Assembly: GCA_000431135.1 (NCBI GenBank)
Contig: HF987891.1
Span: 7,286-71,285, forward strand
Length of the DNA: 64,000 nucleotides
Direction: 5' to 3'
Source: Clostridium sp. CAG:590
GTDB taxonomy: Bacteria > Bacillota > Clostridia > Lachnospirales > Lachnospiraceae
Position numbers and translations under genes: made by a program. How positions within the stretch are numbered: position 1 is the stretch's first letter; each line of letters starts with the position of its first letter. Under the pieces are notes generated by a model, which saw nothing but the letters and a program-made list of their open reading frames with translations, had not been told where the DNA came from and searched no databases. Positions 2,178 to 51,230 of this stretch are shown here, piece by piece.

Positions 2178-4109
2178 TTGGAAGGGGAATTTGTTATGAA
2201 GAAGATTAGTTTTAGAGTGAGGAGTTTTGACAAAGAACAATTTCTGACCTTTAACATTGATAATGAGGCTGAGTTGGATGAGGAGCTGTTAGACTACCTG
2301 GAAGAAGAGGAACCGGCAGGGATTGTTCCGGTAATCTTTGAAGAGGGTGAAGAGTTTGATACATTTTCTTATAATGTGACGGATAAGATTCGCTTGAGTG
2401 AATTGTCCGAACAGGAGATCAATGCGGAGATGGTATTGTTAGTACTTCGGGGATTGGTAATGGCACTGATCGATATGGCGGAGTATCGTGTTCCGGTATC
2501 TTATCTTGTGTTGAATCGTCATTATATTTATATTGATTCTGATTACAAAGTAGAATTTGTCTGTATCCCTTTGGAAGAGATGCGAGAGGATGTTGATATC
2601 AGTCATTTCCTCCGTAATTTTCTTGCAAGTCTGCGTTTTGAATCGTCTGACAATGATAATTATGTTGCAAGATTATTTACATATATCAATAATCATGAAG
2701 TATTTAATCTTCGGAATATGTTAAGTCTCGTAGAAACACTTATGGAAGATCTCGGAATTGAGATTCCGGATGATGCGAATGAGATATATGCAGAATATCA
2801 TGAGGTGGAAGAGGTAACATCTGATACGACTGTTCTGACAAGTGAAGAGGAGACGGATATTTCCCGGGTGATGGATGATCTGGCGGCAGCAGAAGAATTA
2901 GATGATGCGGAAGATATTGAAACAGCAATGAGTGATCTGGCGGCACAGAGTGAAGAAGATACCGGCAAACTTGCTGCTGAGGGAGAAGTGGATGAGCCTG
3001 AAAAAGTAGAGGAAGAGGAAGCCGAGGAACTGGAAGAAGCAGCAGAAGAGGAAGGCGAGGAACCGGAAGAGATAGAAGAAGAGGAAGCCGAGGAGCCGGA
3101 AGAGGTAGAAGAAAAGGAAGCCAGCGAGCCGGAAGAGGTAGAAGAAGAGGAAGCCGAGAAGCCGGAAGAAGTAGAGGAAAAGGAAACTGATGAGTCAGAA
3201 TCAGAAGAGGCAGAAGAAGCCGAGAAACCGGAAGAAGTAGAGGAAAAGGAAACTGATGAGCCAAAAGAGGCAGAAGAGAAAACCAAGAAACCGGAAGAAG
3301 TAGAGGGTGAAGAACCGGAGCAAAAACCAGCAAAGAAATCAGTGTTGGAATTAGATGAAGAGAGCCAGGAGATGGTGAACAAACTGAAAGAGAAGCTGGC
3401 CGGAAGCAAGAAAGAGAAACAACCAAAGCATACTGAAAAAGAAATAAAGAAACCTACATTTAAGACAAAAGATACATCATCTGTTGGTGTTGTAATCCAG
3501 GATGATCTGGATGAATTTTTGGCAGAAAAAGAGATGGAGGAACAGGTCACACATCATGAAGATTCTGGTCTTAAGATCCGCAAGAATATCAAAGTCAGCC
3601 GTGCCAGCATTTTAAAGAATACACAGGAAGAATTGAAGGCTGCAGAGGAGAAAGAGGCGGAACAGAAAGCCTTAGAGGAAGTGACAGAAGCGGAAGACGA
3701 AGTGACAGAAGTGGCAGAAACGGAAGATGAAGAAGTAGTAAGCAACTCTATCTTAAGTCAGACAATCAGCGGGGCGACCGGACTGTTAAGAGGCAATGTG
3801 AATGTTCCGAAGGTTAATCCTTATCTGATCCGTGTTAATACGAATGAGAGAATTATGATTACAAAACAGAACTTCAAAGTTGGGAAAGCAAGTATGGGTG
3901 TAGATTATACAGTGAAGGGAAATGGTGCAGTCAGCAGAGTGCATGCAGTGATTATGAACAAAGACGGTATCTATTATATTCGTGATAACAAATCTACAAA
4001 TCATACATATGTAAATGGTAAGATGCTTGAAGAAGGAGAGAATGAATTGTTAACACAGGATTGTAAGATTGTTCTTGGTGATGAGGAATTCATATTCAAG
4101 TTGCGTTAA
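2178..4109 (+). CDS. FHA-domain protein with a long acidic repeat linker
   Basis: 643 aa; C-terminal FHA signature (GKASMGVDYTVKGNGAVSRVHAVI...YYIRDNKSTNHTYVNGK); central E/P-rich repeats EEAEEPEEVEE; RBS GGAAGGGGAA upstream. Confidence 0.8.
   Translation: MEGEFVMKKISFRVRSFDKEQFLTFNIDNEAELDEELLDYLEEEEPAGIVPVIFEEGEEFDTFSYNVTDKIRLSELSEQEINAEMVLLVLRGLVMALIDMAEYRVPVSYLVLNRHYIYIDSDYKVEFVCIPLEEMREDVDISHFLRNFLASLRFESSDNDNYVARLFTYINNHEVFNLRNMLSLVETLMEDLGIEIPDDANEIYAEYHEVEEVTSDTTVLTSEEETDISRVMDDLAAAEELDDAEDIETAMSDLAAQSEEDTGKLAAEGEVDEPEKVEEEEAEELEEAAEEEGEEPEEIEEEEAEEPEEVEEKEASEPEEVEEEEAEKPEEVEEKETDESESEEAEEAEKPEEVEEKETDEPKEAEEKTKKPEEVEGEEPEQKPAKKSVLELDEESQEMVNKLKEKLAGSKKEKQPKHTEKEIKKPTFKTKDTSSVGVVIQDDLDEFLAEKEMEEQVTHHEDSGLKIRKNIKVSRASILKNTQEELKAAEEKEAEQKALEEVTEAEDEVTEVAETEDEEVVSNSILSQTISGATGLLRGNVNVPKVNPYLIRVNTNERIMITKQNFKVGKASMGVDYTVKGNGAVSRVHAVIMNKDGIYYIRDNKSTNHTYVNGKMLEEGENELLTQDCKIVLGDEEFIFKLR
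2990..3320 (+). repeat. Imperfect tandem coding repeat (units about 33-39 nt) encoding an (E-A-E-K/E-P-E-E-V-E-E-K-E)n acidic linker
   Basis: Repeated gaagaggaagccgagga(a/g)ccggaagaggtagaa units; generates the spurious antisense ORFs 2740-3550. Confidence 0.6.
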
Positions 4110-4226
4110 TTAGAAATGGTAAGAGACCATTGCATGAAGATGTGTAGGAGAGTCTTTAGTGCGATGGTCTTTTCTTATCATTTTCGTAATTGTTAGAGAT
4201 GGAAACAGAAGATTGAGGAGAGTGGA

Positions 4227-5000
4227 ATGGAGATTATAGCGGCCTGTTATTCAGATATTGGGAGATTTAAGCAGATTAATCAGGATTCGTTGTCTGTCAG
4301 GATTGTGAATTCCCCACATGGTAAGATTGCCTTTGCGTTAATTTGTGATGGCATGGGAGGTCTGGAACATGGGGAGCTTGCAAGCAAAGAGGCAATTCTG
4401 GCAATGAACCAATGGTTTCAGGATGAATTTGCTCAATTAGTAGCAGAGAACAGGGTAACGGAAGACAGGTTATACAAACAGTGGCAGGATGTGATAGAGA
4501 GTGTGAACGGACGTCTTGCGGCATATGCACAGACTCAGGGCGTGTCGATGGGAACAACACTTACAGCATTGCTGTTATATAGGGATAATTATTATATTTG
4601 TCATGTTGGAGATAGTCGGATCTATAAGATAGCGGATCGCATATTGCAGATAACGGAAGATCATTCGCTTGTTGCAAAAGAGGTGGAATTAGGTTATCTG
4701 ACCAAAGAACAGGCATTGGTAGATCCGAGACGTAGTGTATTGTTACAATGTGTTGGGGCATCTGACACGGTCAATCCACAATTTGAAAAAGGACAGATTC
4801 CGGAACGGGTGACGTTTGTGTTATCTTCCGATGGATTTGTGCACATGTTGAGTGAAGAAGAGATTTTTCAGTATTTTCAACCGGATCAGATTCGGAATAA
4901 GGAACAACTAACTGCAATATGCAAAGAGGCGACAGAAATTGTAATGGAGCGGGGCGAAAGAGATAATATTACCGTGGCTGCACTTACCTGCAGACAGTGA
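4227..5000 (+). CDS. PP2C-family Ser/Thr protein phosphatase (Stp-like)
   Basis: 257 aa; LICDGMGG metal-binding motif and typical PP2C layout; immediately upstream of the kinase. Confidence 0.85.
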   Translation: MEIIAACYSDIGRFKQINQDSLSVRIVNSPHGKIAFALICDGMGGLEHGELASKEAILAMNQWFQDEFAQLVAENRVTEDRLYKQWQDVIESVNGRLAAYAQTQGVSMGTTLTALLLYRDNYYICHVGDSRIYKIADRILQITEDHSLVAKEVELGYLTKEQALVDPRRSVLLQCVGASDTVNPQFEKGQIPERVTFVLSSDGFVHMLSEEEIFQYFQPDQIRNKEQLTAICKEATEIVMERGERDNITVAALTCRQ

Positions 5001-5035
5001 ACAGGTAGATATTAGGTTGAGAGAGGGTAGCGTGT

Positions 5036-7060
5036 ATGACTAGAGTTGGCACTGTATTGGGTGGCAAATATGAAATACTTAAAAAAATAGGGCAAGGTGG
5101 AATGTCTATTGTTTATGTGGCAATGGATACCCGGTTGAACAAGCAGTGGGCGGTTAAGGAGATCAAACAGAATCCGAAACAGGACACAAGAACACTTTTA
5201 AAAGGTTTACAGATGGAAGCTAACATTTTGAAAATGGTAGATCATCCTGTGTTGCCAAGAATTGTTGATATTATTAATTATAATGGAACGGTTTTTGTTG
5301 TAATGGATTATATCGAGGGACGGCCATTGAGTGAGGTGTTGAAGTTAGAAGGAGCGCAGCCGCAGGAAAAGGTGATCGAATGGGCGAAGGATCTGTGTAG
5401 TGCGTTGGATTATTTGCACTCTATGAATCCGCCGATCATTTATCGGGATATGAAGCCGTCTAATATTATGCTGAAACCGGATGGAAAAGTAAAAATGATT
5501 GATTTTGGTACGGCAAAGGAATTTGATGTAGAAAGCCTTGCGGATACGACAGCGCTTGGAACCAGAGGGTATGCAGCGCCGGAGCAGTTTGGGGATGCAA
5601 GAGGGCGAGGTATTCACAAAACAGATGCGAGAACAGATATATATAGTTTGGGTGCAACGCTTTATCATGTACTGACAGGAAAGAATCCAAGTGAACCGCC
5701 GTATGTGATCAAGCCGATTCGTGATTGGGATCCGTCGTTATCAAGTGGATTAGAGAAGATCATTAACAAATGCACTATGCCGAATCCGGAAGATCGTTAT
5801 CAGTCTTGTACGGAGCTGATATATGATCTGGAACATTATGAGGAGTTGGATGATGCATTTAAGAGATCGTGCTTGAAGAAGATGCGCAGCTTTTTGATCT
5901 GCGCGGGGTTGACGGTTACTTTTGCGGCAGTTGCAATTGGTGGATATATCGGAAATGAACGGGAAAAGAAACTGAATTATGATAATCTGATCAACGAAGG
6001 TTATGCAGATGTCGTACAGGGAGATTATGAAGGAGCAGCCGGTTTATATGTAGATGCGATCACGCAGGTAGATGGCAGCCGGAATGAAGCATATCTGGAT
6101 TTGCTGGATTTGTATATCAATTATATGAATGATGCCGAGACAGGACTTAGCAGGGTAACATATTACATAGACCAACAGTACGATTCAATTGATAAGGATC
6201 AGAAATTATTATTGACGGTTGCGATGGATTATTTCGATGTATTAAAAGATTACAAATCCAGTGCATATTATTTTAATATGCTGGATCAGAAAGAACATCC
6301 GGAGGCGGTATATTATTCAACAATCGCACTTGCGATGGGTGAGCTGAATGTAGATTATGAGAGTCTGACGTTTAATTTGAAGAATTTTGAATCAACAAAT
6401 GATGCTTCCACAATTTCAATTAATAAGTTGATGAATTACCGGTTGTTGTGTATTGTATATGCAAGGAATTTGCAGCAAATGGGAGATGCGGCCGACAGAT
6501 TGATCGAAGCGGCGAATAAGGGACTTGCAGTACTTGAAGTATATGATGATGATAGTGTGAAAGCGGAGTATTACACTATTTATAATCAATATCTTGCTCT
6601 TGCATATGAGAGACTTGGACAAAAATATATAGAAGAGGATCCGCAACGCTCACAGGAGAATTACGAAAAAGCATTGGAATGTTGTGATTTTATATTAGGC
6701 ATGGTAACAGCGGGTGACGGCAAGACGGTTGGCAGTATTACAGATGAGAAACTTCGGGAGGCAAAATATTGCCAAAAAGCAGAGATATATGAAATGCTGC
6801 AGGAGTACGACAAGGCGGATGAGGTGTATATTCAGGCTGAGGAGGAGTTTGGCAGGACGAGTATAGCGGTGTATGCCGGACATTTGTCTTTGCTCTGTAA
6901 GATGGAGGAATTGAAGACTACGGATGTTGAAAAATGGGATTATAACAGACTCCATAAGCTTTATGAACAGGGACAACAGGTGCCTGAGATCCAGAATGAC
7001 TATCGGTGGAAACAGCTGACACAGAAGCTTTCTCCATTGTTTGGAAAGAATGGGGGATGA
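5036..7060 (+). CDS. Hanks-type Ser/Thr protein kinase with a single TM helix and a C-terminal helical-repeat (TPR-like) ectodomain, no PASTA
   Basis: GQGGMSIV P-loop, AVKEI, YRDMKPSNIM catalytic loop, DFG, APE; TM near residues 285-305; extracytoplasmic region rich in Y/L/D, about 370 aa. Confidence 0.85.
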   Translation: MTRVGTVLGGKYEILKKIGQGGMSIVYVAMDTRLNKQWAVKEIKQNPKQDTRTLLKGLQMEANILKMVDHPVLPRIVDIINYNGTVFVVMDYIEGRPLSEVLKLEGAQPQEKVIEWAKDLCSALDYLHSMNPPIIYRDMKPSNIMLKPDGKVKMIDFGTAKEFDVESLADTTALGTRGYAAPEQFGDARGRGIHKTDARTDIYSLGATLYHVLTGKNPSEPPYVIKPIRDWDPSLSSGLEKIINKCTMPNPEDRYQSCTELIYDLEHYEELDDAFKRSCLKKMRSFLICAGLTVTFAAVAIGGYIGNEREKKLNYDNLINEGYADVVQGDYEGAAGLYVDAITQVDGSRNEAYLDLLDLYINYMNDAETGLSRVTYYIDQQYDSIDKDQKLLLTVAMDYFDVLKDYKSSAYYFNMLDQKEHPEAVYYSTIALAMGELNVDYESLTFNLKNFESTNDASTISINKLMNYRLLCIVYARNLQQMGDAADRLIEAANKGLAVLEVYDDDSVKAEYYTIYNQYLALAYERLGQKYIEEDPQRSQENYEKALECCDFILGMVTAGDGKTVGSITDEKLREAKYCQKAEIYEMLQEYDKADEVYIQAEEEFGRTSIAVYAGHLSLLCKMEELKTTDVEKWDYNRLHKLYEQGQQVPEIQNDYRWKQLTQKLSPLFGKNGG

Positions 7061-7992: not shown

Positions 7993-10900
7993 TTGAATAG
8001 GGGAAGAAAATACCGAAAGACAATTGCATATTGCATGATCTGGTTATTGCTTTTGCAGTTGCTGCCGGGGGAAAGAATGGTTGCCACGCAAGCTGCTGAT
8101 GTACAACAGATTGCACAGATTACGATAACTGCACAGAATGAATATACACCGGATGATTGTAAAAAGATCAACGGGGAAGATGTATGGGAGTTGTCCTATG
8201 TGATTGACCATTTAGGAGAAGGGAATCCTGTGTATCTCACAGTGAAACAGACAACAGATGGTTCGGATGTCCTGTTGACGGACAAAGAATTATTAACCGG
8301 AACAGATCTGGAATGGGATACAGAGGGTAGAAGTGATAGTGTGGCAGTGCATTTTCAGGATAGTGCATCTGATAAGGCAACCTTAATCCTGAAGAAGCCG
8401 CAAACGGAATGCGATTATGAGATTGCAATTGAGGTTGAAGATCTTGCAGGTGTTCAGGTTGCAAAAGAGACAAAGAATATCCATTTTGGGAAAGCAATTG
8501 CGCCACCGGATATCGTGCTCAGGAATGTGGATGCAGTGGTTGCGGGATCTGTTGTGGATTCTGTGGCAGACGGAACCTGGACGAATAAAGATGTAGCATT
8601 TGATGTAGAGGTGAAGGATGGGACGACCGGTCTGGTTAAGGTGACTTATGAGTTAGATGGACAACCGGTAGATTCTCCGCAGACATGGGATGCGGCCGCA
8701 CCGGAAAAGAATGCGGTAACAAAAAAGTTTTCTTTTGATACAAGTGCGGCTTCTAGTCAGGGACATGTTTTAAAAGTGACGGCGGAGAATGCGAAGGGAA
8801 AAGACGCAACGCTCACAAAGTATATCTTAATAGACAAAGGGAAACCAGCAATCTCTTTGCATGTAAAAGGTGATGAGACGAAAACGGTTGAGAATACCGT
8901 GTATAAGGCACCGTTCGAGATTGAGGCAGCAGTAACGGATGATCTGCCAACAGATATGGTGTCGGTTCAATATAAGGTCAATGGAATATCAGACAGCAAC
9001 AAACAGAATGTTCGAACATTTGATGCAGGGCAGTATGTTGTTTCGGCAATTGCTACGGATGCAGCCGGTAATTCGACCGAATCTGCCGAGGTAACATTTC
9101 AGGTGGACGGAGCTGCCCCGACGGTGACAAAGCTCTCTTCACAGAGTGATGGAGGATACTACCGCTCCAAACAGACATTTCAATATCAGGTAGATGATGA
9201 TTGCTTAAATGGCGGCAAAACAACGCTTACGGTTAAGAGAACGATAGATGGTATCAGTACATTGGATCCAAAGACGGTTTCCTTGTCGGATACAGAGAAT
9301 ACGGTAACGTATGATTGCGAAGAGGAAGGATTGTATGAATTTACAATAACCGCGGAAGATGCAGTGGGAAATACGCTGCCGGAGCCGTACACATTTCGTT
9401 TTATCATTGACAAGAAAGCACCAACGATTTCAGTAGATGCAAGTGATAAGAATGGAACCGGGCTGGCAAACGAAGGAATGTCCAGACAGGGTGTGAAAAT
9501 TTCTTTGCAGATAACAGACCGGAATCCGGATCTTTCAGGATATTCTATTGTTACAGAGAGAACGGATGGGGATGGCCATAAAACGACCGTTACCCGGTAT
9601 GGAACGCAGATTGCGTGGAACACAGAGGGTGATCCGGCAAAATGCGAGGAGATTCGCAAGTCTGTGGAACTCCCTTATGAGGAAGAGGGATATTATACGG
9701 TTACATTTTCGGCAAAGGATCAAGCCGGCAATGACAATAGTAAGAAGTTTTCCTTTTACATTGACCGTTCAGCTCCGGTTATCAATGAAAATGACATTGC
9801 ATACCGGTCAAATGGTATCTCATTGAGTTTAAAATATGGAATGATCTTTAGTAGCCGGGCAATTCAGGTAACATTCCCGGTAAGAGACAGCATTTCGGGA
9901 TTGTTATATGATGGCAATGCCGGTGCGGTGTATGTAACGATCGGAACAAAGGATCAGAAAGCACCGGATAGTATGATTTATCCGGCTGACCGGATTGGAA
10001 ACAGTGAGTATTACTCTGTAATGCTTCCGTTAGAGAAGGTGAAGCAGTTTGATAATCAGATTACAATCTGGGCAAAGGATCAATTGTTAAATGAAGGGTA
10101 CGCAGAATCAAAGCGGACAATCTATAATGAGAATCCTCCGGTTGTTGCAATGGAGTGGGCAGACAGTAATACTGCAAAGGAGGGTGACTGGTCTGATCGG
10201 GACGTAGTCTATCATACAGTGGTGGAAGATACCTTTTGCGGTATCAGGAAGATCACCTATAAGAAGATTGAGAACGGACAGGAGCAGATTGTAAAAACGG
10301 TTGATTTTACATCATTGGAGAATCAGCAGACGGAGTTTGTCAAGAGACAGGAATATGATTTTGTTGCATCTGATTCTGCAACGACAACGGATGGGTATGA
10401 GTTAAAGATTGAAGTGGAAAATAACTGCGGCAGTACGCAGGAGATGAGCAGGATGGTTTATGTGGATAAGGAACCGCCGAAAGTAGAATTATCCGGAGTG
10501 CAGAATGGTAAGCATTATAATCAGAATCAGACCATACATACCAGAGTAACAGATGTCTCATATAAGGGAACTGCAAATGGAACCAGACAGTCCGCCGTGA
10601 CAACGTATCATGTAACAAGAATGTATGATGGAAAGACGGAAACACTTTTTTGGAAGGATATGATTTCAGATCATATGACGAGTGAACGGGATGATGTTAT
10701 TGCCGAAGAAGGAACGTATGAGATATATGCGAAAACAGTCGATTGTGCAGGCAATACAACAACGTCGGATACGATACGGTTTACGATTGATAAGTATGCT
10801 CCGGTCATTGAGAAAGTACATGTTATGAAAGAACCGTCCGGGGAGCAGATGCCAAACGCAGATGGCATTTATTATCTGAATCGGAATGGACGATATATCG

Positions 10901-13605
10901 TAGAAGCTTCTGATCATTTTCCGAGTGATGATGCACATATTGATGTTGCGTTTGATTATGCGGGAGTTCAGGCAAACACAGAGTCATATGTATTGAATGT
11001 ATCTCCACTTAGAACGACTGCACAGTATCGCTTTACAACAGAGGGAAAATACCGCGCAACAGTAACGGGAACAGATAAGGCAGGAAATATAGCAACGCCT
11101 GTACAGACGGATATCGTTGTGGATAAGACAAGTCCGAAGCTTTCCATTTGTGGTATGCAGTCGGGAACAATGACAAAGAACCCGGTAACACTGACATATG
11201 AGGCGACTGATAAGAATCATGATTTTGATGAATATCAGGTAACGGTGCATCGTACAACGTTGGATGGAGAAAACGAAACGATTGTGGAAAAGGGAGCTGT
11301 ATCCTGGAAACAAGAAGGTTACGATAAGAATGCGCAGGTAGATTATACAACACAGAAGACATCGGTCTATAGTAAAGAAGGTAACTATACGATCACGTTT
11401 GAGGGAACGGACCGGGCAGGCAATGTGGCGACAGCGCGAACCGTTACATTTTCGATCGATCATACAGCGCCGGCAATATCGAATGTACAGTATTGGAATG
11501 AGAATAGTCTGTTACAGCCCCGATATAGCATTATATTTAGTAATAAAATGATCCGCGTACAGTTTCAGGTTACGGATCGTGTAACAGGGGTACAGGATGA
11601 TCTGGTGTATGTAACATTGGGAACGGCTGCAGAACGGGCGGAGAATACACCGTTATATATTGCACGAAAAGGAAAAGATAGTAATTATTATGTATATGTT
11701 CCGCAGGATGTGTTACTTACAGAATATGATGGTGTGATCAGTATCTGGGCGAATGACCGGTTGAAAAATGAATCCAATGTACAGTCCGTGCGTATGATCC
11801 AGAATACAGATCATGCTGTGATTGTGATGGATTGTGATATTGATTATACAACATGGCAGAGCAGGGACGTTACATTTCACACCAAAGTGAAGGATAACAA
11901 GTCCGGTCTTAAGGAAGTGGTATATTCGATTGATGGCAAAGAGACAAAAAAGGTGGTATTCAAGGAATTTGTGAAAGAATACAGTTATGATCTCACAGCC
12001 ACAAAGACCGCAGAAAAGGCAAGTGGCTACACCATGTCCATTAAGGTTGTAAATAATACCGGAACAGAAAGTGAATCACACAGACAGGTGTACGTTGATA
12101 AGGAAGCACCGGTTGTCAGATTATCGGGTGTAACGAATGGCACGCATTATAATAAGAATGTAACAATCACAACGAATGTCGGGGATGTATCTTATAAGAA
12201 TACCAAAACGATATATTATGTGAAGCGTACGTTAGACGGAAAGACCTATACGGAAAAAGTGTCCGCCTGGATTATGAGTAAGAGGGAGGAGCAGAGAAAT
12301 CAACGCTTCCGCAAGGAAGGTACCTATAAGATCTATGCGGTAACAACCGACAGCGCAGGCAATATTACCCGTTCCAATACGTTGCGGTTTGTTATTGATA
12401 AGACTGCTCCAAAGCTTGCAATTTCCGGAACAACAAATGGTTCCATGAATGCAGGAGATGTGTCGCTTACATTTGACCTTACGGATTCCTATTATCAGAC
12501 GACGGATGCCGGAATCCGTATTGAGAAAAAGTTAGACGGAGCAACCACGACAGAAGAGATCTCTGCATTCCCGAAACAGGGGAAACATTCGTCTATGAAC
12601 AGGACGTTTTCGACAGATGGAACGTATCAGATTACCTTTACGGCAAAAGATAAAGCGGGTAATCGGGCGGTGACAAAAACGATTTCTTTTTCAGTTGATA
12701 AGACAAAACCACAGATCAGCATTACGGGGACTTCGAATTATGAGCAGTGGGATGAACCGGTTGCAATCCGATTTGCGGTGGAGGAATCCTACTATGCAGG
12801 TAACCATATCACCATTCGGGGAACCCGCACAGATATCAATGGCAAGGAAGAGGAGATTGACCTGCCTAAAATGGTGAATTCGTCCAAGTTAAGCAGCTTA
12901 CAGCAGATCTTTAGTGAGGATGGAATCTATGATTTTGTAATATCGGCAAGAGACGAGGCGGGTAATCAGGATGAGAAGGAAATTCATTTTGTATTGGATC
13001 AGACCAGCCCGGAAATACACAAAGTTGCAGAATATAGCGGTGGATATTTCCAGGAATTTCAGATTGCGGATACATTAGAAGAGGTGTTCAGGGATCTTAC
13101 GGTTGTATCGTATCGCATCCTGTTAAATGGAGTAGAATACGATGGAACAACGCCGGTTACGGATGAAGGAAAGTATAATCTTTCGGTGGAAGTTCAGGAT
13201 GAATTAGGACATAAGAGTACGGAAACTGCAGAGTTTATTATTGACCATACTGCACCAAAAGTAATATTTACCGGAGTGAAAGACGGGCAGGCGGTATCAG
13301 AAAGAGGAACCGTTACATTATCGCTGACCAATCCGGAAGATGAAATTACAAAGATTACCATGAATGACCAGGAGTATGATCCGGATACAAGGCAGTTAGA
13401 GTATTCGGAGTACGGAACATACCGGATCAATGTGGATTGTGTGGATAAAGCGGGTAACAAAGTGACAAGAACACTACAGTTCAATTATTATAATCCATTG
13501 ACGACAACCATTTTATTTGCTATTATGGGTGGACTCATTTTAATAACCTGTATCTGGTTATGGATGAGAACCATGAAGAAAGAAAAGGAAGAAGAAAGAA
13601 TATGA
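7993..13605 (+). CDS. Giant (1870 aa) secreted, C-terminally membrane-anchored surface protein with at least 11 Ig-like repeat modules
   Basis: TTG start with signal peptide (NRGRKYRK + hydrophobic + ATQA/AD); recurring module starts (I/V)D(K/H/R)(T/K/S)(A/S)P(K/T/V)(I/L/V)S..G; C-terminal TM LTTTILFAIMGGLILITCIWLW + KKEKEEER; no LPXTG. Confidence 0.75.
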   Translation: MNRGRKYRKTIAYCMIWLLLLQLLPGERMVATQAADVQQIAQITITAQNEYTPDDCKKINGEDVWELSYVIDHLGEGNPVYLTVKQTTDGSDVLLTDKELLTGTDLEWDTEGRSDSVAVHFQDSASDKATLILKKPQTECDYEIAIEVEDLAGVQVAKETKNIHFGKAIAPPDIVLRNVDAVVAGSVVDSVADGTWTNKDVAFDVEVKDGTTGLVKVTYELDGQPVDSPQTWDAAAPEKNAVTKKFSFDTSAASSQGHVLKVTAENAKGKDATLTKYILIDKGKPAISLHVKGDETKTVENTVYKAPFEIEAAVTDDLPTDMVSVQYKVNGISDSNKQNVRTFDAGQYVVSAIATDAAGNSTESAEVTFQVDGAAPTVTKLSSQSDGGYYRSKQTFQYQVDDDCLNGGKTTLTVKRTIDGISTLDPKTVSLSDTENTVTYDCEEEGLYEFTITAEDAVGNTLPEPYTFRFIIDKKAPTISVDASDKNGTGLANEGMSRQGVKISLQITDRNPDLSGYSIVTERTDGDGHKTTVTRYGTQIAWNTEGDPAKCEEIRKSVELPYEEEGYYTVTFSAKDQAGNDNSKKFSFYIDRSAPVINENDIAYRSNGISLSLKYGMIFSSRAIQVTFPVRDSISGLLYDGNAGAVYVTIGTKDQKAPDSMIYPADRIGNSEYYSVMLPLEKVKQFDNQITIWAKDQLLNEGYAESKRTIYNENPPVVAMEWADSNTAKEGDWSDRDVVYHTVVEDTFCGIRKITYKKIENGQEQIVKTVDFTSLENQQTEFVKRQEYDFVASDSATTTDGYELKIEVENNCGSTQEMSRMVYVDKEPPKVELSGVQNGKHYNQNQTIHTRVTDVSYKGTANGTRQSAVTTYHVTRMYDGKTETLFWKDMISDHMTSERDDVIAEEGTYEIYAKTVDCAGNTTTSDTIRFTIDKYAPVIEKVHVMKEPSGEQMPNADGIYYLNRNGRYIVEASDHFPSDDAHIDVAFDYAGVQANTESYVLNVSPLRTTAQYRFTTEGKYRATVTGTDKAGNIATPVQTDIVVDKTSPKLSICGMQSGTMTKNPVTLTYEATDKNHDFDEYQVTVHRTTLDGENETIVEKGAVSWKQEGYDKNAQVDYTTQKTSVYSKEGNYTITFEGTDRAGNVATARTVTFSIDHTAPAISNVQYWNENSLLQPRYSIIFSNKMIRVQFQVTDRVTGVQDDLVYVTLGTAAERAENTPLYIARKGKDSNYYVYVPQDVLLTEYDGVISIWANDRLKNESNVQSVRMIQNTDHAVIVMDCDIDYTTWQSRDVTFHTKVKDNKSGLKEVVYSIDGKETKKVVFKEFVKEYSYDLTATKTAEKASGYTMSIKVVNNTGTESESHRQVYVDKEAPVVRLSGVTNGTHYNKNVTITTNVGDVSYKNTKTIYYVKRTLDGKTYTEKVSAWIMSKREEQRNQRFRKEGTYKIYAVTTDSAGNITRSNTLRFVIDKTAPKLAISGTTNGSMNAGDVSLTFDLTDSYYQTTDAGIRIEKKLDGATTTEEISAFPKQGKHSSMNRTFSTDGTYQITFTAKDKAGNRAVTKTISFSVDKTKPQISITGTSNYEQWDEPVAIRFAVEESYYAGNHITIRGTRTDINGKEEEIDLPKMVNSSKLSSLQQIFSEDGIYDFVISARDEAGNQDEKEIHFVLDQTSPEIHKVAEYSGGYFQEFQIADTLEEVFRDLTVVSYRILLNGVEYDGTTPVTDEGKYNLSVEVQDELGHKSTETAEFIIDHTAPKVIFTGVKDGQAVSERGTVTLSLTNPEDEITKITMNDQEYDPDTRQLEYSEYGTYRINVDCVDKAGNKVTRTLQFNYYNPLTTTILFAIMGGLILITCIWLWMRTMKKEKEEERI

Positions 13606-36812: not shown

Positions 36813-37373
36813 ATGGAATTCAACAGTATAGAGAAAAAGGAAGAGGGAAAGTTCATTACCCGGTATGATATTACTTATACAACAGTAGATCATAAGAAGA
36901 AAGTATATGAGATGATCAGTCGGAATAAGAATTTAACAACGCAGGAAGAACTTTCCGATCATCCGGCAGATTCCGTTGTGCTCATCATGCATGATAAGAC
37001 AGGGGAGCGATTGTTGTTAAATCGGGAATTCCGAATGGCGTGCGGAGACTTTGTATATAATTTTCCGGCGGGATTGATCGATCCGGGAGAAGAATTTATG
37101 GAAAGTGCAGCCAGAGAATTGCGGGAAGAGACAGGACTTACACTTGTACAGGTGAATGACATATTGGGTGAGAGTTTTTCTGCGATTGGTTTTTCGAATG
37201 AAAAGAATGTCTGTGTTGTTGGTGTTGCAGAAGGCGAATTTGCACCAAGTACTTCTACAGTGGAGGAGATAGAAGCGCAATGGTACACAAAAGCGGAAGT
37301 TCGCAAGCTATTGACGGAAGAATATTTTGCTGCCAGAACGCAAAGTTATTGTTATCTGTGGAGCAAAGAATAG
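36813..37373 (+). CDS. NUDIX hydrolase (ADP-ribose pyrophosphatase-like)
   Basis: Nudix box GLIDPGEEFMESAARELREETGL; start ATG 36813 with GGGAGG RBS. Confidence 0.8.
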   Translation: MEFNSIEKKEEGKFITRYDITYTTVDHKKKVYEMISRNKNLTTQEELSDHPADSVVLIMHDKTGERLLLNREFRMACGDFVYNFPAGLIDPGEEFMESAARELREETGLTLVQVNDILGESFSAIGFSNEKNVCVVGVAEGEFAPSTSTVEEIEAQWYTKAEVRKLLTEEYFAARTQSYCYLWSKE

Positions 37374-37398
37374 AGATCAATAATTTCATATAAATAAA

Positions 37399-37523
37399 AA
37401 GAAGCGAAGGATTTACCTTCGCTTCTCTTAATGAGGGGGGAGAATTCGAGTACAACTTAATGTACTCATATGAAAAGTTCTTACGATGTATAGTATATTG
37501 GGAATGTGTGAACAAAACGTGAA
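37399..37523. repeat. Repeat R1: terminator hairpin + G-tract + palindrome GAGTACA..TGTACTC; about 90% identical to R2 at 39034-39154
   Basis: gaagcgaagg-tttacc-ttcgcttc hairpin, then aatgaggggggagaattcgagtacaacttaatgtactcatatgaaaagttcttac... Confidence 0.75.
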
Positions 37524-37562
37524 GAAAATCTTTCGGTTTTGTGAAATTTATAAAAATAAAAT

Positions 37563-37590
37563 GAACCAAATAGTATTATCCAGCGTCTAA
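37563..37590 (+). promoter_or_regulatory. Putative ECF-type promoter for the sigma/anti-sigma operon
   Basis: GAAC - 17 nt - CGTCTAA, 34 nt upstream of the sigma ATG. Confidence 0.4.
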
Positions 37591-37623
37591 TCTATGTAAC
37601 CGGTTATAGAAAGAAGGGATGAA

Positions 37624-38085
37624 ATGACGAATTTGACCAAAGAAGAGCTGGAAGAGCTTATATTAGATAATCAAGAATATTTATATAGACTTGCGTTCTC
37701 TTACATGAAAAATGATGCAGATGCTCAAGATGCAGTTGGGGAAACGATTGTAGTAGCGTATGAGAGAATTTATACATTAAGAAAAAAGGAGAGTGCAAGA
37801 GCATGGCTTATGAAAATTCTGATCAATCAATGTCTATCATTGCTTCGGAAACATAAGAGAGAATCAATGTTGCCATTATCAGAAGAAGCGAGTATTCCTT
37901 TTCAATATGATGAGCTTTGGTTAGTCGTTATGGAATTACCAGTTGCTTTGCGATCAATCGTTGTATTGTACTATTATGAGCAATTTACAACCAAAGAGAT
38001 TAGTAAAATTCTTAAGATTCCGGAAGGAACTGTAAAGTCTCGTTTGTCGCGGGCAAGAGAGCAACTGTATATATTTCTTGAGTAA
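37624..38085 (+). CDS. ECF-subfamily sigma-70 factor
   Basis: 153 aa; region 2 and region 4 HTH (TTKEISKILKIPEGTVKSRLSRAR). Confidence 0.8.
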   Translation: MTNLTKEELEELILDNQEYLYRLAFSYMKNDADAQDAVGETIVVAYERIYTLRKKESARAWLMKILINQCLSLLRKHKRESMLPLSEEASIPFQYDELWLVVMELPVALRSIVVLYYYEQFTTKEISKILKIPEGTVKSRLSRAREQLYIFLE

Positions 38086-38097
38086 AGGAGGAATAGT

Positions 38098-39006
38098 ATG
38101 AATAAATCAGATGTAGAGATGGATATGGTGATTTTGGCTTATACCAATTGCCAAACGATAAATCTTCCTAACGGTTACACGGAAATGTTGAATCAGAGAA
38201 TATCGCAAGCAAAGGGAAAGGAACATTTAGACTTTTATTTAAAAAAAAGAATAGCGGTTATTGCTTTATTCTTGATATGTGTGTTTGGAGTAGGTGTCAG
38301 TTTTTCTACGGAGCACTTGTTTCAAGGAAGGGGACATTCATCACATTACACAGGGAAAAAAGATGTGAAAGATATACAAACATCTGGGGCTGAAGCAGAG
38401 GGGGTAAAAACACCGAAGAAACAGGAAAATTCGGTGGATTTTGATGCAGAGGATGTAGCAATACAAATGACGATGAATTTATTTCAAAAGCAACGGGAAG
38501 ATTTACAGGTTGTAAATAAGAATGATCAAGTATTAGATGGAGAGACACAACCAACACAATCGTACGTTTCTATATGTAGTCAGTCTGATCAGATACAATA
38601 TACAATTCAGGTAGATTTAAAGGCACAACAGGTGGTCAGTATTGATTTAGAAGGGGATATTACTAACTATGCAACTGATATATCTGAGGATCAGGAGTTA
38701 GAGCAGTCGTTATACGCACAGGCACAGACTCAAAATGATATATTTACAAAGAAGCAATACTCTGGCAGTCGATGTTATATCCAAACAACGATTGATAAAG
38801 ATTTGGGTATATTACAGCATGGTACAGTAAATTATTGCTTTGAGACCACACAGGATATGATATCTATAATCAGTTATAGCTATACAACAAACACCTTTTT
38901 CCAATATCGTTTGCTTACAAAGGAGGCATTTGAAGGATGGAAGAACCGGATGATGCAACAGTGTGAGGATAGTAAATGGGAGTTTGTATACAGGGAGATC
39001 AACTAG
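38098..39006 (+). CDS. Single-pass membrane protein, putative cognate anti-sigma factor
   Basis: 302 aa; short cytoplasmic N-terminus, TM (IAVIALFLICVFGVGV), large extracytoplasmic domain; coupled 12 nt after the sigma gene. Confidence 0.5.
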   Translation: MNKSDVEMDMVILAYTNCQTINLPNGYTEMLNQRISQAKGKEHLDFYLKKRIAVIALFLICVFGVGVSFSTEHLFQGRGHSSHYTGKKDVKDIQTSGAEAEGVKTPKKQENSVDFDAEDVAIQMTMNLFQKQREDLQVVNKNDQVLDGETQPTQSYVSICSQSDQIQYTIQVDLKAQQVVSIDLEGDITNYATDISEDQELEQSLYAQAQTQNDIFTKKQYSGSRCYIQTTIDKDLGILQHGTVNYCFETTQDMISIISYSYTTNTFFQYRLLTKEAFEGWKNRMMQQCEDSKWEFVYREIN

Positions 39007-39033
39007 AATTATTCTACAAGTATATAAAATACA

Positions 39034-39154
39034 AGAAGCGAAGGGTTTACCTTCGCTTCTTTAATGAGGGGGGAGAATTCGAGTACAACTTAATGTACTC
39101 ATATGAAAAGTTCTTACAATACATAGTATATTCAGAAACTGTGAAAAAATCGTG
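39034..39154. repeat. Repeat R2, second copy of the R1 element
   Basis: Direct comparison with 37399-37523. Confidence 0.75.
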
Positions 39155-39282
39155 TCCGAAATGTATAAGATTTGTGAATGATTTCTTAACTTTTACTTAA
39201 GAGAAGAGGTCGCAATTGCTGAATAAATTAGAAAATGCCGTCAATCCTATAAGTAACATGGAATTGGATTGGAGGCATTTTT

Positions 39283-40032
39283 GTGACAAAAAAAGCAAAG
39301 ATCAGTTTTTTGATCGTAGTATGGAGTATTGTAGCGATACAAATGTATGTTAATTATGAACAACGCATTCGGTTGCGGGAAGAAGCGGTAACAGCATTTT
39401 CTGTGGAACAGGACAAAGCACCGGAAGAGACCATTCATGGGTATGGAAAATTTGGAGATATGGAACTGACAGATGCAAATAAGAAAAAAATGTTAATAAA
39501 TTTTGCGGATAAATTAGGAATTACGGATGGATATACTTTCCGGAATGGAACGGGAGATCATTTTACCAAAAAGATGTTGGTGAAAAAGGGAAAATATGCA
39601 ACGGTTGAGTTGCAACTCATTAGTTTGGATCAGGACGGAGCGGAACCGGAACAATACATTGTGACCAATATAACAACCAGACAGGAAATGGAACCGGCAA
39701 TTTCATTGTATCGGAAAGTAAAACGAATTTATGAGGAGATTGGTGTTGAGGCACAGGTTAGCATTGAGGTTGCAATGAAGCAGGCGGGAAATATTGCTTT
39801 AACAGGCAAAGAAAGTGTACCGGAGCAGATATTTGCGCTTGTAAAGGCAAAAAAAGTGGATGAAATAACAGAAAATAATATCTGTACAGTGTACGGTTAT
39901 ACATGGTTGGAAAAGGATTATTTGAAGTTGAACAATAAAAAAGTCAATATCCAGATCGTAATGTCATATGATGAAAAAGAGGATGAGACGTATATAAAGA
40001 TAGGAGTTCCGCTTGTAAACACTTCTTATTAA
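39283..40032 (+). CDS. Membrane-anchored/secreted hypothetical protein (YwmB/DUF1779-like architecture)
   Basis: GTG start with GGAGG RBS; N-terminal TM; 249 aa. Confidence 0.45.
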   Translation: MTKKAKISFLIVVWSIVAIQMYVNYEQRIRLREEAVTAFSVEQDKAPEETIHGYGKFGDMELTDANKKKMLINFADKLGITDGYTFRNGTGDHFTKKMLVKKGKYATVELQLISLDQDGAEPEQYIVTNITTRQEMEPAISLYRKVKRIYEEIGVEAQVSIEVAMKQAGNIALTGKESVPEQIFALVKAKKVDEITENNICTVYGYTWLEKDYLKLNNKKVNIQIVMSYDEKEDETYIKIGVPLVNTSY

Positions 40033-49511: not shown

Positions 49512-49692
49512 ACTTCTCTTATTCAGAGTGGTGGAGTCAGAAGGGACTACGAAGCCACGGCAACCCCATTGTTATTTGGAAGGTGCCGGCCTGAAGCGAG
49601 TTGAGATACTCGGTCAATAAGAGGATTTGGATATAGTGAGCACATAAACTTCAAATCCTCGTGGATTTGGAGTTTTTTTGTAGGGTAATCTT
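49512..49692 (+). ncRNA. SAM-I (S-box) riboswitch with intrinsic terminator
   Basis: P1 CTCTTATTC...GAATAAGAG, GGTGGAG, GGCAACC, GGTGCC conserved blocks; terminator CCAAATCC-tcgt-GGATTTGG + U7; TTGACC/TATGAT promoter about 70 nt upstream. Confidence 0.7.
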
Positions 49693-49887: not shown

Positions 49888-50001
49888 TGCTTACGAAGTG
49901 GATGCCTGCTTACGAAGTGAACGTTTGCTTACGAAGTGAACGTCTGCTTACGAAGTGGATGCTTGCTTACGAAGTGAACATTCCCTCACGCAGTGTCTGT
50001 G
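49888..50001 (+). repeat. 19-nt tandem repeat x5 (plus one degenerate copy): (c/t)tgcttacgaagtg(g/a)a(t/c)g(c/t)
   Basis: Read directly; noncoding (period not a multiple of 3), in the metK 5' leader. Confidence 0.8.
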
Positions 50002-50042
50002 CACAAACCCAGTTTTATTTCAATCAGGAGGAACCATATATT

Positions 50043-51230
50043 ATGGAGAAATTAATTTTTACATCCGAGTCCGTAACCGAAGGACATCCGGATAAGATCT
50101 GTGACCAGATCTCAGACGCCGTATTAGATGCATTGATGGCACAGGACCCAAACAGCCGTGTCGCTTGTGAGACAGCTATTACAACAGGTCTTGTATTAGT
50201 AATGGGAGAGATCTCTACAAAAGGATATGTAGATATTCAGAAGATCGTTCGTGAGACGATCCGTGAGATCGGTTATGACCGTGCAAAATACGGATTTGAC
50301 TGTGATACATGCGGTGTTATCACAGCAATTGATGAGCAGTCAAGCGATATTGCCATGGGTGTAGATAAGGCATTAGAAGCAAAAGAGAATTTAATGAGTG
50401 ATGAAGATATCGAGGCAATTGGTGCAGGAGATCAGGGTATGATGTTCGGTTTTGCATCAAATGAGACAGAAGAGTATATGCCATATCCAATCAGTCTTGC
50501 ACATAAATTAGCAAGAAAATTGACAGAGGTTCGTAAGAATGGAACACTTCCTTATCTTCGTCCGGATGGAAAAACACAGGTTTCTGTAGAATATGATGAG
50601 AATGGTAAGCCGTTCCGTCTTGAGGCAGTTGTATTGTCAACCCAGCATGACGCAGAGGTATCTCAGGAGCAGATTCATGAGGATATTAAGAAGTATGTAT
50701 TTGATGAGATCCTTCCGGCAGATATGGTAGATGAGAACACCAAGTTCTTTATTAATCCAACCGGACGTTTCGTAATCGGTGGCCCGAATGGCGACTCTGG
50801 TCTTACCGGACGTAAGATCATTGTAGACACTTATGGTGGATATGCCCGTCACGGTGGTGGAGCATTTTCCGGTAAGGACTGTACAAAGGTAGACCGTTCC
50901 GCTGCATATGCTGCAAGATATGTTGCAAAGAATATTGTAGCAGCAGGATTAGCTGATAAATGTGAGATTCAGTTGTCTTATGCGATTGGTGTGGCACAGC
51001 CAACTTCTGTTCGTGTAGATACATTTGGAACAAGCAAACTGACAGAGGAAGAGTTGGTAGGCATTGTACGGAAACATTTTGATCTCCGCCCGGCAGGCAT
51101 TATCAAGATGTTAGATCTTCGCCGTCCAATCTACAAACAGACCGCTGCATATGGTCATTTTGGACGTACAGATCTGGATTTGCCATGGGAGAAATTAGAC
51201 ATGGTAGATACATTAAAGCAGTATGCATAA
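50043..51230 (+). CDS. metK: S-adenosylmethionine synthase
   Basis: [25 protein letters not shown]; GGGAFSGKD; start ATG 50043 with AGGAGG RBS. Confidence 0.92.

Follow-up and report, generated by a model that had tools for sequence, protein, structure and literature searches.

The window considered in this work is a stretch of 64,000 nucleotides (nt) from Clostridium sp. CAG:590 (contig HF987891.1, positions 7,286 to 71,285 of the forward strand), in which two copies of a direct repeat, A and B, stand on either side of a gene for an extracytoplasmic function (ECF) sigma factor and a gene for a membrane protein. As far as can be judged from the DNA itself, the repeat most likely represents a pair of sibling genes for a conserved small RNA of gut Lachnospiraceae, one that is absent from the catalogs and of a kind directed against ribosome-binding sites. 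That the two copies are minus-strand small-RNA genes of about 90 nt, which predate the cassette carrying the sigma gene, appears probable, with some room left for doubt. The mechanism that is proposed for them, in which a promoter driven by a response regulator is combined with a block of translation through pairing to both the Shine-Dalgarno (SD) sequence and the start codon, has, when its parts are taken jointly, a somewhat less than even prospect of being right.

The repeat described in the original prediction is real and lies at the places given there, extending slightly further in each copy, with a gapped homology between 37388-37545 and 39022-39178 in direct orientation. The identity of about 90% that had been reported is close to what is found over the narrower coordinates used at that time (111/125, or 88.8%) and becomes 85.4% (135/158) over the full extent. 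It is distributed unevenly, amounting to 94.6% in the RNA part of the units and 70.5% in the promoter part, and the longest exact run that the copies have in common is 57 nt long (37428-37484). A core of 35 nt, GAGGGGGGAGAATTCGAGTACAACTTAATGTACTC, occurs exactly twice in the window and gave 0 matches in 100 shuffles, and the 7-base-pair (bp) inverted repeat GAGTACA-N6-TGTACTC, previously noted in both copies, was found at 37448-37467 and 39081-39100 and nowhere else in the window. The GC-rich hairpins with which the units begin (37397-37429 and 39033-39061) had been described as terminators with a T-tract placed immediately after a stop codon; a hairpin is indeed present in each unit and close to a TAG stop, but at a distance of about 24-28 nt instead of adjacent to it, and in a consensus scan for terminators both hairpins come out on the minus strand, whose T-run is the better one, the plus-strand tail being merely CTCTTAATG or CTTTAATG. 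The parts of the two predicted genes, together with the stops, are as follows.

37371-37373 and 39004-39006: TAG stops before the hairpins, of the NUDIX gene and of the anti-sigma-like gene, respectively
37392..37484, minus strand: predicted small RNA, copy A, about 93 nt (covariance model R1, 113.2 bits, model positions 1-93)
39026..39117, minus strand: predicted small RNA, copy B, about 92 nt (model R1, 115.2 bits)
37397..37429, minus strand: intrinsic terminator of copy A, 14-bp stem, 5-nt loop, tail UUUUUAUUU (terminator scan)
39033..39061, minus strand: intrinsic terminator of copy B, 12-bp stem, 5-nt loop, tail GUAUUUUAUA (terminator scan)
37433..37442, minus strand: unpaired C-run of copy A, RNA CUCCCCCCUC, plus strand GAGGGGGGAG (unpaired in minimum-free-energy and centroid folds)
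39066..39075, minus strand: unpaired C-run of copy B (evidence: see copy A)
37448..37467, minus strand: hairpin 1 of copy A, GAGUACA, loop UUAAGU, UGUACUC
39081..39100, minus strand: hairpin 1 of copy B (palindrome and fold)
37468..37484, minus strand: unpaired 5' tail of copy A, GUAAGAACUUUUCAUAU, containing CAU and complementary to AUAUGAAAAG (start codon, then AAA)
39101..39117, minus strand: unpaired 5' tail of copy B (evidence: see copy A)
37492..37497, minus strand: predicted -10 box of copy A, TATACT
39125..39130, minus strand: predicted -10 box of copy B, TATACT
37507..37523, minus strand: direct repeat of copy A, TTCACG-N5-TTCACA, ending 9 nt upstream of the -10 box
39140..39156, minus strand: direct repeat of copy B, GACACG-N5-TTCACA
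37540..37547, minus strand: third box of copy A, TTCACAAA, marking the outer edge of the repeat homology
39173..39180, minus strand: third box of copy B, TTCACAAA

The RNA predicted from copy A thus has the order 5'-GUAAGAACUUUUCAUAU, hairpin, GAAUUCUCCCCCCUCAUUAAG, and terminator with its U-tail, the 5' end being placed, not measured, 7 nt downstream of the -10 box; CUCCCCCCUCAUUAA could serve as the target of a probe. The covariance model R1 has only these two matches in the window. The terminator of copy A, 24 nt past the NUDIX stop, probably also ends the convergent NUDIX gene.

A promoter reading toward the terminator is suggested by the layout that the family has in common. All of the 30 elements compared, the divergent paralogs included, carry NNCACN-N5-NNCACA-N9-TATNNT on the minus strand, which is followed by N5-7, the 5' tail AACUUUUCAUAU, a hairpin, the unpaired CUCCCCCCUCAUUA, and an intrinsic terminator. 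The boxes and their distances are fixed, while the 9-nt spacer takes nine different sequences among the 30 elements and the 5-nt and 7-nt spacers vary too. The invariant sequence begins exactly at the predicted +1, with a block that starts GUAAGAAC or (C)AUAAAC; written together with the spacer before it, this end of the layout is TATNNT-N7-(G/A)UAA. The third box, TTCACAAA, whose start lies 22 nt upstream of that of the distal repeat, is found in types A, B and most copies of a further paralog, type C. Winged-helix response regulators usually have as their footprint direct hexamer repeats that occupy the -35 position with a period of 11 bp, and the direct repeats are proposed here to be a candidate site for such a regulator, replacing the -35 box. 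A sigma-70 scan gave only weak matches at the units (e.g., TTCACA-18-TATTGT on the minus strand of copy B), which fits an activator-dependent promoter.

The pairing within the predicted transcripts points to the same strand. The minus-strand fold has an energy of -32.6 kcal/mol (z = -6.8) in copy A and -30.8 kcal/mol (z = -5.8) in copy B, and the centroid structure contains both stems and leaves both conserved segments unpaired. Over 14 sequence classes, the stem pairs read on the minus strand comprise 238 Watson-Crick pairs, 10 G·U pairs and 1 mismatch, as opposed to 238 Watson-Crick pairs, 1 G·U pair and 10 mismatches on the plus strand. Three separate places along the stems hold the G·U pairs, and these belong to hairpin 1 and to two types of terminator. 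At its fifth pair, hairpin 1 has A-U in Clostridium sp. CAG:590, whereas most other species have G·U and paralog C has G-C; read on the plus strand, the commonest of these states would be an A·C mismatch halfway along a stem of 7 bp. Hairpin 1 comes with four different stems and the terminator with seven, and every one of them pairs. In an alignment of 13 sequences, 99.6% of the 227 cells pair and seven pairs change on both sides, while sliding the partners by 1-3 columns leaves just 41-52% of the cells paired, and the covariation score of 0.324 compares with 0.128 ± 0.021 in shuffles, none of 500 of which reached it. The register of this alignment was set by hand, with N padding and with the L021 paralog omitted, because MAFFT applied to all paralogs had mis-registered the type C hairpin and the L021 paralog. 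Taken together, these comparisons indicate that the secondary structure is maintained by compensatory change.

An exact 20-mer scan of 185,579 species genomes, among whose matches the representative of the window species was not found, so that its copy count covers 64 kb only, returned eight real loci in seven or eight metagenome-assembled genomes of Lachnospiraceae/Clostridium, all of them at this one locus and with one or two copies each, as well as one further chance match in a GC-rich genome. A pattern scan of metagenomes gave 31 loci, about 19 of which are chance matches without any other feature of the family. Across the types, the copy number is 1-3 per genome, with several relatives having three copies (A, B and C) that share the same boxes. 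The tandem arrangement of A and B, 180-214 nt apart, is found in at least four other species (fetched loci L008/L017, L020, L024 and L039), where it is followed by NfeD, RDD and SpoIIT genes or by others. The conserved left neighbor of the family in every species examined is the NUDIX gene, while the downstream plus-strand gene varies by species and may be a sigma gene, NfeD, SpoIIT, another small-RNA copy or an open reading frame (ORF) of 319 amino acids (aa).

The differences between the copies are constant across species (e.g., the promoter segment is GTGAACAAAACGTGAAGAAAATCTTTCGG in type A and GTGAAAAAAACGTGTCCGAATTGTATA in type B), from which it follows that the A/B duplication is older than these species. 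Copy B of the relatives is 89-94% identical to that of the window, compared with 73-78% for the NUDIX gene, 66-70% for SpoIIT and 80-95% for aspS, and the DNA between and around the units is not alignable; in the more distant relatives, the small RNA is more conserved than the aspartyl-tRNA synthetase gene. This argues for strong purifying selection on the units.

Type C is a diverged paralog located between aspS and NUDIX (L008/L009, L017, L019, L024, L039 and L054), and the paralogs of L020 and L021 are still more diverged. The window is without a type C copy, its aspS-NUDIX spacer being just about 60-80 nt long. The positions of this third paralog are given in the following line.

L008 2883-2962, L019 1846-1925, L024 3597-3677, L039 4574-4653, L020 5271-5362 and L021 2846-2955, minus strand: third paralog

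In the diverged paralogs, hairpin 1 is GAGUGC-GNAA/AUAA-GCACUC or AGUACAG-AAUCAU-CUGUACU, versus GAGUGCA-UUAAGU-UGUACUC, and the terminator stem is wholly different (GCUGCC/GGCAGC, GAAAGGGAUUGUCUC/GAGAUAAUCCCUUUC or AAUGGGGCUGC/GCAGCCCCAUU). Types A, B and C nevertheless all keep the unpaired tail AACUUUUCAUAU, of which AACTTTTCATAT is invariant in the aligned classes, and, while stems and loops differ, the C-run CUCCCCC within CUCCCCC(C)UCAUUA. In the L021 paralog, the tail is UUUUUUCAUAU, which retains only TTTTTTCATAT, and there is a related C-rich stretch, CUCCUCCCCUCCC. Single hybrid copies, with a terminator of type A and a promoter region of type B, are present in L009 (3855-4034) and L019 (2620-2799), which shows that tandem copies recombine and accounts for the variation of the copy number (1, 2 or 3) between strains and species. 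No element was found within 6 kb in the more distant SpoIIT relatives L011 and L014 (58-59% identity). In species with a single B-type copy, the small-RNA gene comes after a gene of about 400 aa (L021 3794-5008, plus strand; L030 1128-2327, minus strand), which by eye we take to resemble a flavodiiron protein (metallo-beta-lactamase plus flavodoxin) and which could hint at a redox context.

The genes around and between the two copies are listed below.

36813..37373, plus strand: NUDIX hydrolase gene (Pfam NUDIX), convergent with small RNA A
37550..39020, plus strand: strain-variable cassette of 1471 bp, with a promoter-like site, the ECF sigma gene and the gene of the 302-aa membrane protein
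39283..40032, plus strand: YwmB/SpoIIT-family gene (PF08680), divergent from small RNA B

As had been claimed, the units bracket exactly the sigma gene (37624-38085) and the gene of the 302-aa membrane protein (38098-39006, plus strand). The description of the pair as sigma and anti-sigma holds for the former, which has the Pfam domains Sigma70_r2 and Sigma70_r4_2; the latter has no Pfam match and one hydrophobic segment, so that its designation as a putative anti-sigma factor derives from this segment and from its position after the sigma gene. Among 5.8 billion proteins, the 302-aa protein has only three homolog clusters (99, 90 and 84% identity), all at this locus, and the diverged cassettes, whose anti-sigma-like proteins are 90% and 84% identical, also lie between A and B. 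A variant of the cassette has two extra genes, an SH3_3 gene and a 304-aa gene, after the anti-sigma-like gene (L002 7353-9056; L067 1613-3253). An ECF-type promoter-like sequence, TGAACC-N16-CGTCTA, lies inside the cassette at 37562-37587 on the plus strand, 37 nt upstream of the sigma start; this motif is not enriched in the window (3 found versus 1.46 expected). Its presence suggests that the cassette may be autoregulated and self-contained, and the link between cassette and small RNA appears to be positional only.

That the cassette is an insertion absent in relatives, a possibility raised in the original prediction, is borne out by empty alleles in other species and in strains of the same species, the latter being defined as contigs with proteins identical to those of Clostridium sp. 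CAG:590. The aspS and YwmB-like proteins encoded in the window are themselves identical to those of this human-gut metagenome-assembled genome, and its locus recurs on many metagenome contigs. In the empty allele, the cassette is replaced by the 12 nt GAATGGATATTA; L046 matches the window at 98.1% identity for 12 kb, as far as 37549, after which these 12 nt lead straight into copy B. L057-L060 and L062, which have an identical NUDIX protein, show the order NUDIX, A, B, SpoIIT, with the model matches 173 nt apart and no sigma genes. As the empty alleles and the other species carry both copies in tandem, the duplication predates the cassette, and the copies appear to bracket it because it was inserted into the short spacer between A and B. 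The common empty allele is not the product of a deletion between A and B either, since such a deletion would leave one hybrid copy, and the empty allele has two. The suggestion that the repeats are a recombination scar from the insertion is thereby refuted, both complete copies being retained 12 nt apart. No support was obtained for the further suggestion of a repeated binding site that coordinates the sigma operon and the downstream YwmB-like gene: the units are strongly conserved where the sigma operon is absent, single units in some species adjoin quite different genes, and the promoter-like boxes, variable spacers and G·U pairs all point to the opposite strand. The third suggestion, a duplicated terminator/operator module, was right in part, but the unit is better read as a whole minus-strand small-RNA gene, with promoter, RNA and terminator.

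Several observations concern the immediate surroundings of the copies. The aspS-NUDIX-SpoIIT stretch is a hot spot for strain-specific insertions, those between aspS and NUDIX being either a gene for a 987-aa leucine-rich repeat (LRR)/Big_2 surface protein (L001/L007 2215-5178) or a 162-aa gene (L004 4682-5170). A palindrome, TTCTTAA-N7-TTAAGA(G)AA, is located at 39183-39203 on the plus strand, just beyond the outermost box of copy B, and the same palindrome adjoins type B copies in several species (at about 4013-4035 in L008), where SpoIIT or NfeD lies downstream of it; either the operon that follows or small RNA B may have its operator here. Several metagenome contigs have a gene call for an ORF of 74 aa (38976-39200, plus strand), which covers all of small RNA B and reaches back into the end of the anti-sigma-like gene; Pfam gives no hit for this ORF, nothing corresponds to it over copy A, and the call is probably spurious. 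Likewise, an ORF of 104 aa on the minus strand over copy A has no counterpart in copy B. Many metagenome contigs (L063-L066, L018/L023, L054/L055) end inside or beside the tandem copies, and the aspS-SpoIIT locus is often split between contigs because the tandem repeat breaks short-read assemblies.

In the model proposed here, A and B are old paralogs, as a rule arranged head to tail between the NUDIX and YwmB/SpoIIT genes, with the ECF sigma cassette inserted between them in this strain. A response regulator of the OmpR type (winged-helix), which we infer from the conserved geometry, would bind TTCACG-N5-TTCACA at the -35 position and TTCACAAA two helical turns upstream, and, once bound, would activate the promoter with the -10 box TATACT. 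Transcription would begin about 7 nt downstream, at GUAAGAAC, and stop at the strong intrinsic terminator, which may serve the convergent upstream gene too; in this scheme the RNA ends are predicted, and the strand and structure are drawn from comparison. Promoter, free 5' tail, hairpin, C-run and terminator follow one another as they do in trans-acting small RNAs of Firmicutes. The resulting RNA would present two invariant unpaired segments flanking a hairpin, namely the 5' tail AACUUUUCAUAU and the C-run CUCCCCCCUCAUUA. The complement of both arms, with the hairpin omitted, is GGGGGGAG-AAUUCAU-AUG-AAA-AG, in which a textbook Shine-Dalgarno sequence is followed, after 7 nt, by a start codon and then a lysine codon. 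The C-rich seed CUCCCCC(C)UC, which is unpaired in the folds and retained in types A, B and C, is complementary to GGAGG-type sites. The C-run is accordingly the proposed anti-Shine-Dalgarno seed and the 5' tail the proposed anti-start-codon seed, and the RNA would most likely pair with the ribosome-binding region of target mRNAs, blocking translation initiation, with two or three near-identical copies possibly giving dosage or redundancy, as for other multicopy small RNAs.

A more specific version of this mechanism is doubtful as a whole and is offered as a speculation: the RNA would be a “split anti-ribosome-binding-site” RNA, the arms of which pair simultaneously with the SD sequence and with the start codon plus AAA, while the hairpin is looped out in a three-way junction, for which GGGGGGAGAAUUCAUAUGAAAAG would be the model target of both arms. 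Such an RNA would form the output arm of an OmpR-type two-component system and an independent re-invention of the circuit of CiaR and the CiaR-dependent small RNAs (csRNAs) of streptococci. If true, it would act as a clamp over the whole initiation region, with a different box (TTCACN-N5-TTCACA) and a different RNA than in streptococci, in spore-forming gut Lachnospiraceae.

Alternative readings place the function on the other strand or in the DNA. On the plus strand, the unit could be a cis element that has, past the upstream gene's terminator, the strong SD sequence GAGGGGGGAG, a hairpin that brings this SD within 7 nt of an AUG, and a mini-ORF of 6-11 codons, acting on the downstream gene as a leader peptide or re-initiation module. 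With the hairpin folded, the plus strand does look like a textbook ribosome-binding site, every copy has a short ORF starting ATGAAAAGT (MKSSYDV*, MKSSYNT* or MKSLWL*), and the plus-strand fold is stable as well (z = -4.7 and -5.2). No plus-strand promoter is present, however, between the terminator and the SD, and in tandem arrays copy A is followed by the terminator of copy B and not by a gene. The bridging hairpin would carry an A·C mismatch in most species, giving the 10 mismatches versus 1 counted above, the mini-ORF peptides vary in length and sequence through nonsynonymous changes, their stop codon coincides with the conserved -10 box of the minus strand, and the conserved boxes beyond the ORF are left unexplained; we consider this reading very unlikely. 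A module that acts at the level of DNA and makes no stable RNA, i.e., a bidirectional terminator with operators (the palindrome and the GTGAA repeats) controlling neighboring plus-strand genes, would account for a hairpin able to terminate both convergent transcripts, for GTGAA repeats whose 11- and 22-bp spacing resembles a protein-binding array, and for the fact that the units are always intergenic and beside gene ends. Yet a palindrome recognized by a protein should keep its sequence, while here stem and loop length change with compensation (GAGTGCA/TGTACTC, GAGTGC/GCACTC, AGTACAG/CTGTACT), and conservation is highest in the unpaired bases that separate the stems. The plus-strand gene that would be controlled differs between species, and the constant intervals, of 9 nt to TATNNT and of 7 nt to where the invariant block starts, agree with a promoter directed toward the terminator, which makes this explanation quite unlikely.

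A rival that shares the small-RNA genes but not their targets holds that the RNAs titrate an RNA-binding protein (CsrA- or Hfq-like, or a ribosomal component) instead of base-pairing with mRNAs. In its favor, no mRNA target was found (49 initiation regions; 586 kb), although that search covered merely about 1-2% of a genome, so that the null result says little; multicopy tandem small RNAs with repeated motifs are typical of protein sponges, and the authors of the csRNA study propose a protein site for their conserved nonamer (PMC3091779). Against it, each RNA has one C-run and not many repeated motifs of the GGA type, and the joint complement of the seeds fits a canonical SD, 7 nt and AUG far too well for a protein site, so that protein titration seems unlikely. 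The direct repeats that bracket a strain-variable cassette could, finally, be taken for the ends or footprints of a mobile element or for a target-site duplication from the insertion of the cassette, and the two copies do recombine, as the single hybrids of L009 and L019 attest. This idea has next to nothing to recommend it once the empty allele, with its two full copies, is considered: the copies are 158 nt long and only 85% identical, with copy-specific differences conserved across species, and the units are confined to one locus per genome. The cassette has no transposase, integrase, other mobility gene or terminal inverted repeats, and nothing similar to the unit was found in plasmid and phage collections.

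It has to be noted that several findings weigh against the small-RNA model or parts of it. As to the structure, copy A of L020 goes the other way at one pair, which is A·C when read on the minus strand but would be G·U when read on the plus, the hand-set, N-padded alignment leans towards the structure that it supports, and the covariation lies mostly in the terminator, while terminators are readily replaced; that of hairpin 1 is thin, with one varying (three-state) pair among A, B and C, plus the divergent L021 stem. With regard to the promoter, the distal repeat of copy B (GACACG) is weaker than that of copy A, the boxes are weaker in some copies, and no known regulator has been shown to recognize TTCACA repeats. 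No gene for a histidine kinase or response regulator was detected among the ORFs of the window (Pfam for 38 of the 49 large ORFs, with precomputed domains for the remainder of the locus). The start of transcription, the length of the RNA and the promoter are all predictions from sequence. On the side of the targets, the best of the 49 initiation regions in the window reached -15.7 kcal/mol, which is no outlier (mean -11.2, standard deviation 3.0; RNAduplex with both seeds), and no dual-seed site was found in 586 kb of fetched loci, where the regular expression SD-N4-10-AUGAAAA gave only intragenic chance matches and the elements themselves.

Elsewhere in the window, the sole Rfam match at gathering level is a SAM riboswitch (RF00162, 69.5 bits) at 49516-49623 on the plus strand, in an ordinary arrangement upstream of the S-adenosylmethionine synthetase gene (49902-51227). 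A cluster of genes for an FHA-domain protein, a PP2C phosphatase and a Ser/Thr protein kinase (2178-7057, plus strand) and an ORF of 1869 aa (7993-13602) are unrelated to the finding.

To our knowledge, next to nothing has been mapped of post-transcriptional regulation in the Lachnospiraceae, which are a dominant family in the human gut. A short, strongly conserved, multicopy family with a searchable promoter signature would offer a practical entry point: the promoter motif can be used to define the regulon and to find the response regulator, and the two seeds can be used for genome-wide target prediction. The locus also calls for caution in annotation, given the spurious 74-aa ORF over copy B and the assemblies that break at the tandem copies, and repeats flanking a cassette may mislead readers into inferring a mobile element.

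An RNA of this sort is described neither in Rfam 15 nor in the literature on Lachnospiraceae that was searched, and none of 4227 Rfam models, including RsaE, LhrC, csRNA and SpF25, matches the element or the copies of the relatives at the gathering threshold. Sub-threshold matches (SpF25, sraA, HrrF and microRNA models) were rejected as generic. The best of them, SpF25 of Streptococcus pyogenes (RF02432), matches the minus strand over model positions 1-102 and likewise has two hairpins, the second being the terminator. The scores of 27-32 bits (32.1 and 30.3 for the two copies) compare with a gathering threshold of 48, it is mainly the terminator stem that holds the aligned identities, and the SpF25 consensus does not include the C-run; the match is one to a generic “hairpin plus terminator” and does not signify membership. 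A literature search on SpF25 returned nothing relevant.

Functional analogies exist with RNAs that carry C-rich seeds. RsaE/RoxS of Staphylococcus and Bacillus pairs through C-rich unpaired regions with G-rich Shine-Dalgarno sequences (PMC4409812; Geissmann 2009, PMC2790875) and is activated by the OmpR-family regulators ResD/SrrA via a conserved box about 65 nt upstream (PMC4409812). The element has its conserved TTCACAAA box at a comparable place, about 56-63 nt upstream of the predicted start. The ResD site probably contains TTGTGAA-like half-sites, and no regulatory link is claimed. RsaE differs in being single-copy, in having four C-rich regions and in forming an Rfam family of its own, which does not match the element. 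The boxes of the element also contain the half-site TTCACAA/TTGTGAA of the Rex operator, which is an inverted repeat, TTGTGAA-W4-TTCACAA (PMC2883068). The three boxes, in contrast, have the same direction and a spacing of 11 and 22 bp, which points to a head-to-tail binder and not to Rex; a Rex or CRP/FNR operator was rejected, the boxes being direct, not inverted, repeats. In Listeria monocytogenes, the five copies LhrC1-5 all depend on LisR, and an unpaired UCCC motif pairs with the Shine-Dalgarno sequence of the target and blocks translation (PMC4132741). The element is likewise multicopy with common promoter elements, but without similarity to LhrC in sequence or model, and it has one long C-run in the linker and loops that are not conserved, whereas the UCCC motif of LhrC occurs three times, in a linker and two loops.

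A further parallel is provided by the csRNAs (Halfmann 2007; Marx 2010, PMC3091779), small RNAs of about 50-200 nt with 2-6 genes per genome in Streptococcus, most of which consist of a 5' stem-loop and a terminator stem-loop with unpaired anti-SD and anti-AUG sequences (PMC3091779). Their promoter has NTTAAG/TTTAAG-N5-TTTAAG 10 nt upstream of the -10 box, replacing the -35 box, and the start is assumed to lie 7 nt after the -10 box (PMC3091779). The element resembles them in the succession of hexamer-N5-hexamer, 9 nt, TATAYT and 7 nt, in the presence of several similar genes, and in having an anti-SD C-run between the stem-loops and a CAU in the unpaired 5' tail, in the order that is right for SD...AUG. 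It differs in that the boxes are TTCACG/TTCACA and not TTTAAG, with a spacer of 9 nt, in that the hosts are Lachnospiraceae and not Streptococcus, in that all copies lack the csRNA nonamer [A/C]UCCUAAA[A/C], which follows the first stem-loop (PMC3091779), and in that the anti-AUG and anti-SD sequences are split by a hairpin instead of forming one unpaired stretch. The similarity between the two is thus one of way of working and not of descent.

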